A DNA stretch of 64,000 nucleotides. It comes from Candidatus Bilamarchaeaceae archaeon (GTDB lineage: Archaea; Micrarchaeota; Micrarchaeia; Anstonellales; Bilamarchaeaceae). The DNA lies in assembly GCA_038870635.1 (NCBI GenBank), contig JAVZJR010000003.1, positions 4,880 to 68,879 on the forward strand, given 5' to 3'. The translations under genes were made by a program, and so were the position numbers. Within the stretch, counting starts at the first letter, position 1. Every line of letters starts with the position of its first letter. This document shows positions 2,824 to 44,678 of this stretch, in pieces. A model generated the notes under the pieces. It saw nothing but the letters and a program-made list of their open reading frames with translations, was not told where the DNA came from and ran no database searches.

Positions 2824-3849
2824 ATGAAGATAATTCATTATGATGAAAAAGAAGGAGAGATGAAGATTGCGGTAGATAGCCTAGAAGATATGTGGCATCT
2901 CTCCAAAATAATCAGAGAAGGAGATGAAGTGGAAGGCTCTACTTTTCGTACTTACAAGGTTGGAAAAACAGAAGAAAAAAAGCACGTCAAGATTAGGATA
3001 AAAACAGAAAGAGTGGAATTTGCTGAGGCAGCGAATAGGTTGCGTGTGCTTGGAAAAATAACATGGGGAGAACCAGAAGAATTTGTCCAATTGGGAAAAC
3101 ATCACACCATAGATATTGCAGCTGGTGATAAAATAAAGATAAAAAGAAAATGGATGGCGCATGAGTTAAAACGCTTGAGAGAAGCAGAGAAAGAAACAAA
3201 AAAACCAAAGCTAAACGTAATATTGCTTGACGAAGAGCATGCATTATTAGCATCTATAAAACCATACGGCGTGGATTTCGGAGCGGAATTTCACAACGCG
3301 GCGAGAAAAAAAAGTGATGATTTTGACAAAAAGCAAGAGGAATATTTTAAGAAACTCACAGAAGAAATAGAAAGGTTTGAAGGTAAAACTGTTGTTGCTG
3401 GACCGGGTTTTGCAAAAGACAACTTAAAAAAATATATAACAGAAAAAAAGCCAGAACTTTTAAAAAAAATAATTTTTGAAAGTTGCAGTTATGCAGAGCC
3501 AAGCGGAATAAAAGAACTGATAAACAGAGGAGTAATCGAAAAAGCAGTAGGACTCGCAAGGTTTGAAAAAGAGGAAAGAGAAGTAGAAGATTTTTTTATG
3601 CATATATATAAGGAAACAGGAAAGGTAGTGTATGGTATAGAAGAAGTAAAAAAAGCAGTGGCTGAGGGTGCAGCAGAAAAGATTTTAGTTATAGATAGCC
3701 TTTTCAGAACTTCTGAAGAAATACAAAAAATAATAGAAGATGCTGAAAAAACAGGCACTGATGTAATAGTTGTCGCGGCCGAAGGAGACCCTGGATTAAA
3801 GTTAAAGAATTTCGGTGGATTTGGCGCCATTCTCCGTTGGAGAATATGA
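2824..3849 (+). CDS. pelA: Pelota/Dom34 ribosome-rescue factor
   Basis: N-terminus 'MKIIHYDEKEGEMKIAVDSLEDMWHLSKIIREGDEV' matches the Pelota Sm-like domain; eRF1-like central and C-terminal domains ('GPGFAKD'); 341 aa. Confidence 0.85.
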   Translation: MKIIHYDEKEGEMKIAVDSLEDMWHLSKIIREGDEVEGSTFRTYKVGKTEEKKHVKIRIKTERVEFAEAANRLRVLGKITWGEPEEFVQLGKHHTIDIAAGDKIKIKRKWMAHELKRLREAEKETKKPKLNVILLDEEHALLASIKPYGVDFGAEFHNAARKKSDDFDKKQEEYFKKLTEEIERFEGKTVVAGPGFAKDNLKKYITEKKPELLKKIIFESCSYAEPSGIKELINRGVIEKAVGLARFEKEEREVEDFFMHIYKETGKVVYGIEEVKKAVAEGAAEKILVIDSLFRTSEEIQKIIEDAEKTGTDVIVVAAEGDPGLKLKNFGGFGAILRWRI

Positions 3850-23140: not shown

Positions 23141-23161
23141 AAAAAACATCATAGTTTGGGT

Positions 23162-23345
23162 GAGCGTAAGCCTTTGCCCTTGTAATACAGAAGTCAAAGG
23201 CTTCGTAAGAAGCCAAGAAAACAGGAGAAAACATAAAACGGCTGCGGTGGCCGATGAAAACATAAGTCCACCGCACATAGAAAACAGAAAGTATAACAGA
23301 GAAAACAGTAAGAAGCCAAGAAAACAGTAAGAATACCTAAAAACG
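23162..23345. repeat. conserved GC-stemmed noncoding element, copy 1 (candidate ncRNA)
   Basis: Near-identical to 44352-44580 apart from one indel; stems 23168-76/23195-203 and 23243-50/23268-75; six GAAAACA heptamers. Confidence 0.8.
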
Positions 23346-23390: not shown

Positions 23391-24752
23391 GTGAGCTCAA
23401 TAGATGATGTTTTGAAATATATAGCAACAAATGAGATTAGATGGGTTGACTTCCAATTTTTTGGTTTAGATGGTAGTTTACACCGTACAACTGTTTCAAA
23501 CAGAAAAATTGACGAAAGCACGTTCGGAAAAGGACTACGAAGTGCAGATTTAAGAGAAGTCTTTGGTGAAACAAATGGCGAAATAACACTCTTGCCTGAT
23601 CCTGATACAATGGCAAGACTTCCATGGGAACCCGCAACAATTAGATTAATTTCAGATATTATGGTGATGCCCGAGGGCGAAAAATATGTAAAGGATTCGA
23701 GGAGTATGGCTGATAGAATAGAAACAAACCTACAAGCAGCAGGTATAAAAGAAGCAAAAATAGGTGCAGAAGTAAATTGTTATATATTTGACACAGTAAC
23801 ACTGGAAAAGATGGATATAGGAAGAGGAACAGGTATAATCATGGATTCAAGAGAATCAAAATGGAGCCCATCACCATTAAGTTGTGAAAAAGGAGCATAT
23901 ATCAATCAACCTAACGATAGCTTATACGCTGCAAGATGCCAAATAGCAGAGACATTAGAGGATAATTTTGGTGTCTTGATAGACGGTCATTGGCATGGAA
24001 GCAGTCCAACAGGCCAGCAAACATTTGAATTAGCAGAGACAAATATAAAAACAGCAGGAGATGCGTTTGCAACATTAAAATTTGTAACACGAAATCTTGC
24101 AACTGCTGTAAACGTATCGTCTACTTTCATGCCATACCCAGTAGAAGGTGAAAAAGGAAACAATTTATTTATATCAATTAGTCTATGGAAAACAAGTGAT
24201 AATAACATCTTCTATGATGCAGAAGAAAAATACGCGCAAATAAGCCAAAACGCAAGATATTTTATTGGTGGCCTTCTTGAGCACACAAGGGCGTTAACGC
24301 TTTTCACCTGTCCAATTCCAAACTCCTACAAAAGGTTAGCCGCAGCTAACTTTATAGCGGGTTGGAGCGCAATAAAAGGAAACACAATTGTATATGTGCC
24401 GCATGCAAAAAAGAACAGAAAAGAAACCAAGAGGATAGTATTTAAGCTTTCTGACCCGGCAGTAAATCCGTACCTTGCCTACGCAGCAGTTTTGTCTGCT
24501 GGTCTTGACGGAATAAAAAACAAAATAGAGCCTGGTGAGCCAGCAGAAGAAGAAGGAAAAAAGAAAAAAGAAACCACTCTTCCATCCAATCTTTACGAAG
24601 CTGTAGAGGCGCTAGAAAGCGATCCTAAATTTATAAAAGGCGTGGTAACACCAGAGTTCTTAGAAAGCTATTTAGAATTGAAACTCTCGCAGTATAAAGA
24701 AGACAGAACAGCAGTCAGCATGGCAGACCACAGAAAGTATTATAACATCTAA
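23391..24752 (+). CDS. glnA: glutamine synthetase type-I family homologue with degenerate catalytic motifs
   Basis: GS fold markers 'RWVDFQFFGLDG', 'LLPDPDT...LPWE', 'NSYKRL', 'DPAVNPYLAYAAVLSAGLDGI'; GTG start with SD GGGTGG. Canonical metal/ATP motifs are altered (see findings). Confidence 0.8.
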   Translation: MSSIDDVLKYIATNEIRWVDFQFFGLDGSLHRTTVSNRKIDESTFGKGLRSADLREVFGETNGEITLLPDPDTMARLPWEPATIRLISDIMVMPEGEKYVKDSRSMADRIETNLQAAGIKEAKIGAEVNCYIFDTVTLEKMDIGRGTGIIMDSRESKWSPSPLSCEKGAYINQPNDSLYAARCQIAETLEDNFGVLIDGHWHGSSPTGQQTFELAETNIKTAGDAFATLKFVTRNLATAVNVSSTFMPYPVEGEKGNNLFISISLWKTSDNNIFYDAEEKYAQISQNARYFIGGLLEHTRALTLFTCPIPNSYKRLAAANFIAGWSAIKGNTIVYVPHAKKNRKETKRIVFKLSDPAVNPYLAYAAVLSAGLDGIKNKIEPGEPAEEEGKKKKETTLPSNLYEAVEALESDPKFIKGVVTPEFLESYLELKLSQYKEDRTAVSMADHRKYYNI

Positions 24753-25830: not shown

Positions 25831-27729
25831 TTGCACTACAAAGATATAGTCAAGAAAGTAGAAGAGCTTATGCCAAAAGAATGCGGTATAACAAAAATAG
25901 AACCAGAAGGACTTGCAATAGTTGTGTACATAAAAAATGTAGAGGCTTTTTACAACAATATAACCTTAATAAAAGACCTTGCAAATGCGATAAAAAAGAA
26001 GGTATTAGTGAGAACAGATCCAAAATATTTAATGCAGATAGAAAAAGCCAAAAACGAAATAGAAAAACTTATCCCACAAGAGGCAGGAGTAAAAAAAATA
26101 GTATTTGTACCAGAAATGTCAGAAGTGCACATAGAAGCTATAAAATCAGGTTTAGTCATAGGTAAAGGGGGAGCTCTACTAAAAGAAATAATGATAAAAA
26201 CAGGTTGGGCGCCAGTGGTCGAGCGAGCCCCCACTATGCCTTCAGTAACACTCGATGGCGTAAGAAAAATAAGTAATGAAGGTGCAGAAGAAAGAAAAAA
26301 ATTCCTTCTTGAACTTGGTAAAAAGATATGCCATCCATCACCAACAAGCGAATGGATAAGAGCGGTGTCTTTAGGTGGTTTCGGTGAGGTTGGCAGGTCT
26401 TGTCTTCTTATCCAAACACAACACAGCAAAATACTCATAGATGTCGGTGTAAACGCAGCCACAAGCGACCCTGCAAAAGCCTATCCTTATCTTAATATGC
26501 TTGGTTTTTCTCTAAATGAAATAGATGCAGTAGTTATAAGTCACGGACATATGGACCACATGGGTTTTCTTCCTTACCTTTATGCATACGGCTATGATGG
26601 CCCGGTTTATTGCACTGCCCCAACTAGAGACATAATGGTGTTATTGCAACAAGATTACATAAATCTATGCAAAGGGTCTTTTGGTATAGAACCACTTTAT
26701 AGCAAAAAAGACATACAAAAAGAATTAAAGAAAACAATAGTTGTTGATTACGGAGAAGTAGTAGACATCACACCAGAAATAAAGATGACTTTATACAATG
26801 CAGGCCACATACTTGGAAGCGCAAGTATTCATCTCCATATAGGAGATGGATTATACAACTTAGTCTACACTGGGGATATAAAGTTCGGTTTTACGCGTCT
26901 TTTTGAACCAGCACAAGTTAGGTTTCCGAGATTGGAAGCACTTTTTATAGAGAGCACTTACGGTGGACGCAACGATACAACAATAAACAGACATGAGAGT
27001 GAGAATAAATTAATGGAAGTCATAATGCAGACAGTTGAAAAAAGAGGAAAGGTACTCATACCTGTTTTTGCAGTTGGTAGAAGCCAAGAAATATTGTTAG
27101 TTTTAGAAGAATACAGCAGAAAACATCCAGAATTTAATATACCAATATATATCGATGGAATGGTATTAGAAGCTTCTGCAATACATACCGCTTATCCTGA
27201 ATTTATGCGGGAGCAGGTTCAAAGAAGGATACTCTCGGATAGAAGTCCTTTTGAATGCCCTTTAATAAAAGTCGCAAAAGGACCAGATAGAGATAGTATT
27301 GCAAATAGTGAAGAAGGTGCGATAATATTAGCGCCATCAGGTATGCTTGCTGGTGGCCCATCATTAGAATACTTAAAAATGATGTGTGATGATGAAAAAA
27401 ACACCCTCATATTTGTTGGTTATCAAAGCACACTTTCAATTGGATATAAAATTCAAAACGGTATGAAAGAAGTGCCTATAATAGGAGATGACGGAAGAAC
27501 AAAACTACTCAATATAAATATGAGAGTTGAAACCGTAGAAGGTTTTTCTGGACATAGTGATAGAACACAACTCATGGCTTATTTAAGAAATCTTAAACCG
27601 ACTCCTGAAAAAATTATCACGATGCATGGCGATTTAGGAAAAACCGAAGATCTTGCTCGTTCTGCTGCTATGATGCTAAGAAAAGATGGTCGAGCTCTAA
27701 TGAATCTAGAAGCCATTAGATTGAGATGA
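25831..27729 (+). CDS. aCPSF1 (two KH domains plus MBL/beta-CASP ribonuclease)
   Basis: N-terminal KH region 'GLVIGKGGALLKEI'; 'SHGHMDHMG', 'NAGHILGS', 'YTGD', 'ESTYGG', 'SGHSDR', 'MHGD'; 632 aa; TTG start with SD GAGGTG. Confidence 0.9.
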   Translation: MHYKDIVKKVEELMPKECGITKIEPEGLAIVVYIKNVEAFYNNITLIKDLANAIKKKVLVRTDPKYLMQIEKAKNEIEKLIPQEAGVKKIVFVPEMSEVHIEAIKSGLVIGKGGALLKEIMIKTGWAPVVERAPTMPSVTLDGVRKISNEGAEERKKFLLELGKKICHPSPTSEWIRAVSLGGFGEVGRSCLLIQTQHSKILIDVGVNAATSDPAKAYPYLNMLGFSLNEIDAVVISHGHMDHMGFLPYLYAYGYDGPVYCTAPTRDIMVLLQQDYINLCKGSFGIEPLYSKKDIQKELKKTIVVDYGEVVDITPEIKMTLYNAGHILGSASIHLHIGDGLYNLVYTGDIKFGFTRLFEPAQVRFPRLEALFIESTYGGRNDTTINRHESENKLMEVIMQTVEKRGKVLIPVFAVGRSQEILLVLEEYSRKHPEFNIPIYIDGMVLEASAIHTAYPEFMREQVQRRILSDRSPFECPLIKVAKGPDRDSIANSEEGAIILAPSGMLAGGPSLEYLKMMCDDEKNTLIFVGYQSTLSIGYKIQNGMKEVPIIGDDGRTKLLNINMRVETVEGFSGHSDRTQLMAYLRNLKPTPEKIITMHGDLGKTEDLARSAAMMLRKDGRALMNLEAIRLR

Positions 27730-44351: not shown

Positions 44352-44580
44352 GAGCGTAAGCCTTTGCCATCGATAGCTATGCTATCGAGCTGTAAACGTA
44401 TAGACGTTTACACAAGGAGATGATAGAAGTCAAAGGCTTCGTAAGAAGCAAAGAAAATAGGAGAAAACATAAAACGGCTGCGGTGGCCGATGAAAACATA
44501 AGTCCACCGCACATAGAAAACATTAGAAATACAGAGAAAACAGTAAGAAGCAATGAAAACAGTAAGAATAACTAAAAACG
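44352..44580. repeat. conserved GC-stemmed noncoding element, copy 2 (with a net ~46-nt two-hairpin expansion)
   Basis: Aligns with 23162-23345; extra perfect hairpins CGATAGC/GCTATCG (44371-87) and GTAAACG/CGTTTAC (44392-411) lie inside the stem-A loop; abuts the tRNA-Arg 3' end. Confidence 0.8.
44574..44578 (-). terminator. T5 run after tRNA-Arg
   Basis: A5 on the plus strand directly after the discriminator base; it lies inside repeat copy 2. Confidence 0.4.
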
Positions 44581-44678
44581 GGCCTGGCAGGATTTGAACC
44601 CACAACCGCCTGGTCACTCCTACAATCAGGAGAGTGCATCCGAAGCCAGGCGCTCTATCCAAGTTGAGCTACAGGCCC
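44579..44678 (-). tRNA. tRNA-Arg(UCG) with a 25-nt intron at position 37/38
   Basis: Minus-strand read GGGCCTG-TA-GCTC..GAGC-G-CCTGG-CTTCGG[intron]A-CCAGG-CGGTT-GTGGG-TTCAAAT-CCTGC-CAGGCCC-G; the T-stem needs two G-U pairs. Confidence 0.8.

Follow-up and report, generated by a model that had tools for sequence, protein, structure and literature searches.

The stretch of DNA analysed here (the window, 64,000 nucleotides) corresponds to G000:C3:4880-68879, where G000 is an archaeal assembly of 859 kb in 8 contigs, with 35% G+C and an estimated completeness of 89.6%. Rfam finds an archaeal RNase P RNA in the window, which points to an archaeal host, and most tRNAs bear introns. Starting at position 44352 of the window, an intergenic element runs up to the 3′ end of a tRNA-Arg gene encoded on the opposite strand. 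A preliminary description, made from the sequence of the window, had presented this element as the second copy of a two-copy element. Both copies are real, but they are just two of 13 arrays in the genome: copy 2 is an array belonging to a family of modular intergenic cassettes whose orientation is constrained. The parts of copy 2, its neighbouring tRNA and copy 1 are the following (window positions).

44352–44441: A module of copy 2; the arms of its stem A are GAGCG-T-AAGCCTTTG (44352–44366) and CAAAGGCTTCG (44431–44441), enclosing a 64-nt loop.
44371–44416: two-hairpin block of 46 nt, inserted relative to the form called A-short2; hairpin 1 lies at 44371–44387 and hairpin 2 at 44392–44411.
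44441–44542: B unit of 102 nt, starting with GTAAGAAGC; degenerate sub-repeats of about 10 nt (RAGAAAACAG) form an A-rich linker around hairpin B.
44479–44511: hairpin B, with arms TGCGGTGG (44479–44486) and CCACCGCA (44504–44511) and a 17-nt loop, CCGATGAAAACATAAGT.
44562–44579: terminal segment, GTAAGAATAACTAAAAAC, read as GTTTTTAGTTATTCTTAC on the tRNA strand, where a T5 run comes straight after the discriminator.
44579–44678, minus strand: tRNA-Arg(TCG), 52.9 bits with the Rfam tRNA model; its anticodon loop contains a 25-nt intron, and the element meets its 3′ end.
23153–23344: copy 1, consisting of one A-short1 module, one B unit and the terminal segment.

Copies 1 and 2 are 93–98% identical across about 150 nt, and their similarity stops at ...CTAAAAACG, that is, at the discriminator and first acceptor base of the minus-strand tRNA-Arg. 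On re-reading the sequence, this end point and the T5 run that follows it on the tRNA strand proved to be as first described, and so did every coordinate given at first, including those of the extra hairpins. The tRNA is missed by ARAGORN unless introns are allowed; by default the program detects only one of the two window tRNAs. Stem A, which is common to all A modules of G000, has 11 bp with one bulge, and a copy in the related genome G001 (L049) shows a compensatory C-G to T-A change in its outer part. Its loop measures 18 nt in copy 1 and 64 nt in copy 2, which agrees with the net expansion of about 46 nt originally noted. Compared with the A-short2 variant (GCCAT joined to GAGATGATAGAAGT), copy 2 differs by a single clean insertion of 46 nt, 44371–44416, that contains hairpin 1 (CGATAGC-tat-GCTATCG) and hairpin 2 (GTAAACG-tataga-CGTTTAC).

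The preliminary description had seen in this insertion an expansion nested within a preserved stem, and had taken it as an argument for function at the RNA level. The stem is indeed preserved in the minimum-energy fold of the minus strand, where both extra hairpins nest inside stem A, but the fold of the plus strand forms the two extra hairpins and hairpin B with stem A absent (folding z-scores of −4.1 and −4.4 for the minus and plus strand, respectively). As for the functional argument, it does not withstand a comparison of all copies of the block. The two-hairpin block is found at 7 loci of G000, identical apart from two inverted loop versions and one 5-nt duplication; its stems never vary, and no covariation was seen in any of the copies compared. 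It sits in an A-short2 background in copy 2 and in an A-short1-like background in the other long copies. The 5′ leader repeats of another tRNA contain a hairpin akin to hairpin 2, with AGCTCG adjoining it as in the block (G000:C2:41213-41245). Because the same sequence recurs, in two A backgrounds and with a relative in a tRNA leader, the 46-nt block is best seen as a shuffled DNA module, unlike the variable-length expansion segments of RNAs, and the two extra hairpins of copy 2 as one interchangeable module of a kit. G034, a genome of another taxonomic family, contains an exact 22-nt match to hairpin 1 (ATCGATAGCTATGCTATCGAGC) in intergenic DNA rich in hairpins (G034:C65:5657-5678, L024).

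Genome-wide BLAST with copy 1 as query gave 31 matches in G000. The 13 arrays comprise two module types, A and B, with 21 B units. The loop of the A module exists in three forms, A-short1, A-short2 and A-long (the one with the two extra hairpins), and an A/T-rich spacer separates successive A modules. B units are 101–103 nt long and repeat head to tail, their hairpin being either of type B1 (TGCGGTGG/CCACCGCA) or of type B2 (UGCCG/CGGCA plus an inner stem). An array has 0–3 A modules, then at least 1–2 B units, and finally GTAAGAATAACTAAAAAC, constant across all G000 arrays. The arrays form mosaics of the A-long, A-short1, A-short2, B1 and B2 modules. The fixed end (GTAAGAAT...) is joined exactly to gene boundaries, the opposite end is variable or truncated, and the terminal 14 nt are duplicated at two loci. 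One array holds an assembly gap, and three contig ends fall inside or beside arrays. The starts of contigs C1 (1-142) and C4 (1-261) read as two halves of one array, ...GGGTGAGCGTAAG then AGCCTTTGCCC..., and for this reason the two contigs are probably neighbours on the chromosome.

About 170 genomes of the order were searched with BLAST and with a covariance model of the B unit. The family was found in six, all from one taxonomic family. Within the genus of the window genome (g1), three of seven genomes carry the element (G000, G001 and G005), and it is absent by both methods from G002, G003, G004 and G006; a further carrier, G007, belongs to a different genus. Exact-pattern scans of wider genome and metagenome contig collections brought up nothing related: six matches were due to chance, and all failed the B-unit covariance model.

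Ten of the 13 arrays stop precisely where a small stable-RNA gene on the opposite strand has its 3′ end. When the other tRNA genes of G000 were checked for the element, eight tRNAs in all were found to carry it at their 3′ ends (C1:181082, C1:206921, C1:217995, C1:393534, C2:42908, C3:49458, C4:261 and C4:10960; the one on C3 is the window tRNA-Arg, and C1:393534 is cut by a contig end). Seven of them are recognized by Rfam, and C1:217995 by ARAGORN only. The remaining two arrays adjoin the 5S rRNA gene and the signal recognition particle (SRP) RNA gene; the element is not specific to tRNA-Arg. An eleventh array adjoins a tRNA-like 3′ fragment (G000:C1:204548-204640, GGGGTTCAAATCC...TCTGGGCG), accepted by neither Rfam nor ARAGORN, which is perhaps a pseudogene or one half of a split tRNA. 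The twelfth is co-directional with a 175-codon open reading frame (ORF), 63 nt past its stop. Copy 1 alone has no gene ending against its right side, and a glutamine-synthetase-like ORF begins 46 nt past it, at 23391. Since stable-RNA genes make up about 40 of some 900 genes, simple arithmetic predicts that fewer than one of 13 arrays would lie beside one by chance. The family forms a common 3′ flank for a quarter of the small stable-RNA genes of G000. Decayed traces of the terminal segment are present behind tRNA-Asn, tRNA-Leu(GAG) and a C/D box small RNA (sRNA) candidate; the 16S, 23S and RNase P RNA genes of G000 are without the element.

The two strands of the arrays differ strongly in composition. 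The A-rich strand is 66–71% purine. Runs of four or more T occur 3.76 times per 100 nt on the tRNA-sense strand of the G000 arrays versus 0.05 on the other, for a genome mean of 1.42, and the same polarity is found in the G005 arrays (4.5 versus 0) and in the G007 cassettes (1.55 versus 0.19). Three to six such runs are present in the first 100 nt of every array, and UGUUUUC is repeated about seven times per unit on the T-rich strand. Straight after the 3′ end, a T5 run (T4 at the SRP RNA) is found in eight of the ten stable-RNA genes; the two exceptions, C1:181082 (a tRNA) and 5S, have only T2-T3 there. Several arrays are flanked by T runs on both sides, as at tRNA-Arg (G, then TTTTTAG...CGCTCG, then TTTTAAAAC). 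In every configuration inspected, it is the T-rich strand that follows genes, and the A-rich strand that precedes them or stands behind convergent ORFs having their own T runs; in none does the T-rich strand separate a promoter from its gene.

U4-tracts act as the terminator signal in Methanococcus maripaludis; termination is most efficient, and the KH domains of aCPSF1 bind most strongly, where at least two tracts are present, and non-coding RNAs obey the same rule (PMC8716108). The tRNA genes of N. equitans finish in T-stretch terminators (PMC3491384). With the aCPSF1/FttA-dependent U4-tract terminators of archaea (PMC8716108) the arrays share the T4-T5 run after the gene (8 of 10), the presence of at least two U4-tracts in about 30 nt, the use at non-coding RNAs, and a genome that encodes the factor. 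The gene of this proposed trans factor lies in the window, separate from the repeat:

25831–27729, plus strand: aCPSF1/FttA gene (TIGR03675, 817 bits, above the cut-off, at G000:C3:30719-32602).

We tentatively propose, with somewhat less than even confidence, that the arrays are polar U-tract terminator or insulator cassettes, derived from a promoter-type cassette and spread by recombination. The T-rich strand of an array would act as a one-directional terminator or insulator for stable-RNA genes: the T5 run right after the discriminator would halt most transcription, and the later UGUUUUC repeats, with at least two U4-tracts per 30 nt, would form a fail-safe series read by RNA polymerase and aCPSF1/FttA. 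The A-rich strand would be transparent to transcription, and related cassettes could therefore stand upstream of genes in the sense orientation, in a promoter- or leader-like manner. Cassettes would spread and be reshuffled via recombination between copies, without a dedicated transposase, and their orientation would be filtered through selection against premature termination.

A number of observations weigh against this proposal. The element is dispensable, being absent in four of six same-genus relatives, and the tRNA genes of the cassette-free G006 end in plain T runs. At the window tRNA-Arg, natural T4 and T5 runs lie just past the array, so that the array is unnecessary for terminating this gene. 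Arrays exceed the genome mean density of T4 tracts only about 2.6-fold, single T4 tracts are frequently interrupted (GAATAC variants), and downstream of ORFs the T runs of this AT-rich genome show hardly any strand bias (1.23 versus 0.98 per 60 nt). The SRP RNA 3′ cassette of the sister genus is poor in T runs, and in G005 the array is the upstream flank of two tRNAs, one tRNA having the A-rich strand as its trailer. Whereas known U4-tract terminators are short unique flanks, the cassette is a 150–490-nt array with covarying hairpins, repeated at 85–99% identity beside about a dozen unrelated stable-RNA genes. A length of 200–490 nt and a covarying hairpin with a conserved loop exceed what a terminator needs, and the hairpin is left unexplained. 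Nor do recombination and slippage explain why the cassette meets transcript ends with single-base exactness.

Hairpin B has a G+C-rich stem of 7–8 bp and a conserved, purine-rich loop of 17 nt (17–19 nt across genomes). Among 33 distinct B units, 85% of the alignment cells are paired and four of the eight pairs show compensatory double changes. This covariation score was reached by none of 500 shuffles, slid controls collapse, and eight fully complementary versions of the stem exist across genomes, including G007, G049 and G009. As the stems covary, and the shuffles and slid controls fail, hairpin B is, on this comparative evidence, under selection for pairing, in RNA or in single-stranded DNA. 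The two types B1 and B2 are both retained in G000 and G001. Of the 33 units, 17 close the hairpin with U-A and 16 with C·A on the A-rich strand (the latter U·G on the T-rich strand), and no G·U pair is found on the A-rich strand among these units. This gives a weak indication that in genus g1 the tRNA-sense, T-rich strand is the one that folds, the wobble test having one informative position in genus g1 and almost none in G007.

Folding of the T-rich strand would suit a role as trailer RNA, an extension of the original idea of a transcript linked to the tRNA trailer. RNase Z would release the arrays from the joint transcript, and they would accumulate as stable U-rich hairpin RNAs acting in trans, for instance as a sponge for aCPSF1, Sm-like proteins or RNAs. 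The trailer begins at the discriminator, its hairpins are under structural selection and have a conserved loop, the wobble pairs are consistent with the tRNA-sense strand, and UGUUUUC recurs about seven times in each unit. The 3′ETS-leuZ of E. coli is a tRNA-linked functional RNA. Like it and like the dicistronic tRNA-C/D sRNA of N. equitans, a DPANN precedent that is cut by RNase Z (PMC3491384), the sequence starts at the RNase Z site of a tRNA, here again in a DPANN-type archaeon. However, the T5 terminator between tRNA and hairpins should stop most transcription ahead of the latter, 5S rRNA, SRP RNA and RNase P RNA have this same trailer, and C/D boxes and other known RNA motifs are lacking. 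A C/D box sRNA was rejected, the loop having a lone GAUGA or CUGA with no partner GA beside the 3′ arm of hairpin B, and the lack of a GA next to this arm also argues against reading the hairpin as a kink-turn or kink-loop. An H/ACA sRNA was rejected as well, since the ACA that follows the stem varies (ACC in G005). At a permissive threshold, Rfam returned for the element only CrcZ, whose 14.5 bits against a threshold of 95 are noise. Moreover, homologous cassettes in relatives run in the opposite sense, upstream of genes. A fixed tRNA-trailer RNA as the defining role is contradicted by these cassettes, and we consider trailer RNAs acting in trans very unlikely.

In relatives, arrays or cassettes are found on either side of genes. 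At 3′ ends and on the opposite strand, G005 and G001 have them at RNase P RNA (L030), SRP RNA (L037), tRNA-Thr and an sRNA candidate, to which a further tRNA, read by eye only, can be added (L042). The sRNA candidate abutted by an array in G001 (L048) is a C/D box one, with canonical 12-nt guides, identified by its box motifs only. At the SRP RNA 3′ flank of G001 (L051) the terminal segment is kept (terminal 33 nt) and the remaining flank is different. The SRP RNA gene of G007 (L121) also has a cassette at its 3′ end, antisense, as in G000 and G001, so that this association is kept in three genomes and two genera. G049 has 102-nt tandem arrays, one of them against the 3′ end of a putative tRNA (read by eye only).

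Other genes of these relatives follow the cassette in the sense orientation. In G005, tRNA-Arg and tRNA-Gln begin exactly at the constant end of an array, and in G001 tRNA-Arg lies 30 nt downstream of one. G007 has 29 single cassettes (L108-L135) pointing toward the next gene, with about 16 ORF starts 54–65 nt past the hairpin. They are about 130 nt long and very regular: a TATA-like box, the covarying hairpin, CAYTATAGAGAAYATAAGTAGTACGACG, then TTTATAAGAATGAGAAAAYAGGAGG. Three intron-containing tRNAs, including tRNA-Arg(TCG), start exactly at the cassette end (L128 was confirmed by Rfam and ARAGORN, the other two were read by eye). The G007 cassette is a candidate for a propagated promoter or leader. 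The association of tRNA-Arg with the cassette is found in four genomes, three of which have the gene in the sense orientation, and the arrangement in the window looks like a derived, inverted state. A simple inversion of tRNA-Arg at acceptor-stem repeats was considered and rejected, as the discriminator on the cassette side does not fit. In an empty-site comparison at tRNA-Arg, the flanking genes differed between species.

These sense arrangements raise the possibility that the A-rich strand is the functional one, as a promoter or 5′-leader module or as an A-rich hairpin RNA, in which case the G000 arrays would give antisense or convergent transcripts. Besides the orientation of the G007 cassettes and the exact tRNA starts at their ends, TATA-like boxes at promoter distance in G007 (TTTATATAAGTAA; TTTATAAGAATG about 30 nt ahead of the gene) fit this explanation. 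So do the two G005 tRNAs that abut an array in sense, with a TATA box before the array and CTTAAG at −29 to −24, and the A-module spacer of G000 (GTAGAATACCTCA), which is similar to the G007 box region. A comparison can be made with putative mobile promoters, reportedly described by Matus-Garcia et al. in 2012 as identical upstream regions before unrelated genes. The G007 cassette resembles them in standing, at a fixed distance and with TATA-like boxes, before about 16 unrelated ORFs and several tRNAs. The G000 cassette differs in that it is tandemly amplified, lies antisense at 3′ ends and has a degraded TATA-like motif. For G000 an active A-rich strand seems improbable. No array stands at promoter distance before a gene, the sole candidate being copy 1, and a separate TATA box lies between copy 1 and its ORF. 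The TATA-like motif has decayed to ACAGTAAGAA in genus g1, the terminal segment leaves just 10 nt ahead of the junction, firing head-on into ten highly expressed stable-RNA genes would be costly, and the sole wobble signal in genus g1 favours the T-rich strand.

Rather than serving any function, the cassette could be a selfish or neutral modular repeat, tolerated only where the polarity of its T runs is harmless. Ectopic recombination or slippage would carry copies of it into oligo-T terminators and into A/T-rich sequence beside genes. It shares with REP/BIME-type repeats an organization in multi-copy, intergenic, palindromic modules that form mosaic arrays. It resembles REP/BIME of E. coli, BOX of S. 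pneumoniae (boxA-boxB(n)-boxC) and the Correia or NEMIS repeats of Neisseria in its hairpin modules of variable number, its strictly intergenic location, often between convergent genes or after 3′ ends, and its reshuffling between loci; these families can also supply promoters or terminators and affect transcripts. Unlike them, it is archaeal, has neither a RAYT or other transposase nor terminal inverted repeats, prefers the ends of small stable RNAs with base-exact junctions, and shows an extreme purine/pyrimidine asymmetry of its strands.

A repeat of this kind would account for much of what is described above: the patchy spread (6 of about 170 genomes in the order, 3 of 7 in the genus), the variable mosaic arrays with copies up to 99% identical at distant loci, the contig breaks within arrays, the fixed and truncated ends, the T runs on both sides of several arrays, the doubled terminal 14 nt, the inversion of tRNA-Arg relative to the cassette in G000 versus G001, G005 and G007, and the ability of G006 to do without the element. 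In the 89.6%-complete G000, however, no match was found to PF01797 (RAYT/Y1 transposase) or to PF00589 (Phage_integrase, the XerA-type tyrosine recombinases), and G000 likewise has no match to PF07282 (TnpB) or PF00078 (reverse transcriptase). Terminal inverted repeats and a consistent target-site duplication are lacking, the covarying stems and conserved loop imply selection on the hairpin, B1 and B2 are both maintained in G000 and G001, the SRP RNA and tRNA-Arg associations persist across genera, and the selfish model supplies no targeting mechanism for the 10 of 13 arrays at stable-RNA 3′ ends. We regard a repeat devoid of function as unlikely, though it is a serious competitor. As to the way the cassette spread, whatever it does, ectopic recombination or slippage at T runs would be the most economical explanation because of the missing enzymes and terminal inverted repeats, the bracketing T runs and the terminal 14-nt duplications.

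Several known identities were tried and rejected. A miniature inverted-repeat transposable element does not fit: the ends GGGTGAGCG... and ...CTAAAAAC are not inverted repeats, left ends vary, and flanks share only T runs. A palindrome-associated element derived from IS200/IS605 was discarded on the absence of PF01797 and PF07282 from G000, and a non-LTR (long terminal repeat) retroposon or short interspersed element, suggested by an A-rich fixed end and a variable other end, on the absence of PF00078. A CRISPR array was rejected since the whole 102-nt unit repeats, without unique spacers. A remnant of a phage attachment site, or a 21-kb integrated element between copies 1 and 2, is incompatible with the core genes found there (RNase P RNA, tRNA-Ser, aCPSF1) and with the absence of an integrase. 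Coding capacity was dismissed: the frames of 60–132 codons on the T-rich strand stem from a shortage of A, and units of 101–103 nt shift the frame. Curved DNA was also dismissed, A-tract spacings of 10, 7, 23, 23, 20 and 19 nt not being consistently in phase. The Dictyostelium TRE and yeast Ty3 elements, which are autonomous retroelements targeted via RNA polymerase III factors (PMC5006619), likewise crowd beside tRNA, 5S and small RNA genes of gene-dense genomes in a preferred orientation. The cassette is unlike them in having neither a reverse transcriptase nor coding capacity, and in residing in an archaeon, with its single RNA polymerase. In literature searches we found no published account of a repeat family in archaea that delimits small stable-RNA genes.

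The base-exact junctions could be addressed by one last possibility, to which we give only a slight chance. The cassette might be a mobile transcript-boundary element, joined to its targets by a base-exact, RNA-templated or structure-guided reaction new to archaea, with the covarying hairpin and its conserved loop as the site recognized by the machinery. It would be in keeping with this that the constant end meets ORF and tRNA starts in relatives, and stable-RNA 3′ ends in G000 and relatives. The stable RNAs met by the cassette all have paired 5′ and 3′ termini.

Some further repeats were noticed around the small RNA genes of these genomes. Leader units bearing hairpins precede several tRNAs of G000 (G000:C2:41150-41283; tRNA-Asn, C1:77122; tRNA-Leu(CAA), C1:157311; tRNA-Glu, C2:97261). 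In one of these units the tRNA's initial bases are repeated (GGGGTAGCGA...), and a relative of A-long hairpin 2 is present. In G006, which is without the cassette, tandem trailer units follow two copies of one tRNA (L099 on G006:C43 and L106 on G006:C1), each unit repeating the last 11 nt or so of the tRNA (CTCCCTCGGCG) around a hairpin, which gives it the look of an acceptor-stem minihelix. Two C/D box sRNA candidates of canonical form, with the order C, 12 nt, D′, C′, 12 nt, D, are found at G000:C1:385378 (plus strand) and in G001:C3 (L048, about 3704-3760); the former shares a different trailer of about 35 nt (TGTTTTCTAAGCATATCTATATCTCCTGTACGCTCA) with the tRNA at C1:172540. Some tRNA introns of G000 are at non-canonical positions, and in relatives the T arm of tRNA-Arg holds extra introns.

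Should the arrays be terminator or insulator cassettes, as we tentatively propose, they would illustrate how a symbiont with an ultra-compact genome copes with read-through from the genes it transcribes most, and would provide a ready-made polar terminator for aCPSF1/FttA. If they are selfish, they would represent a rare non-autonomous repeat having a base-exact preference for transcript ends and no visible transposase in the genome. The repeat accounts for assembly breaks and for local rearrangements such as the apparently inverted tRNA-Arg, and it is a marker for unannotated small RNA genes in these genomes.

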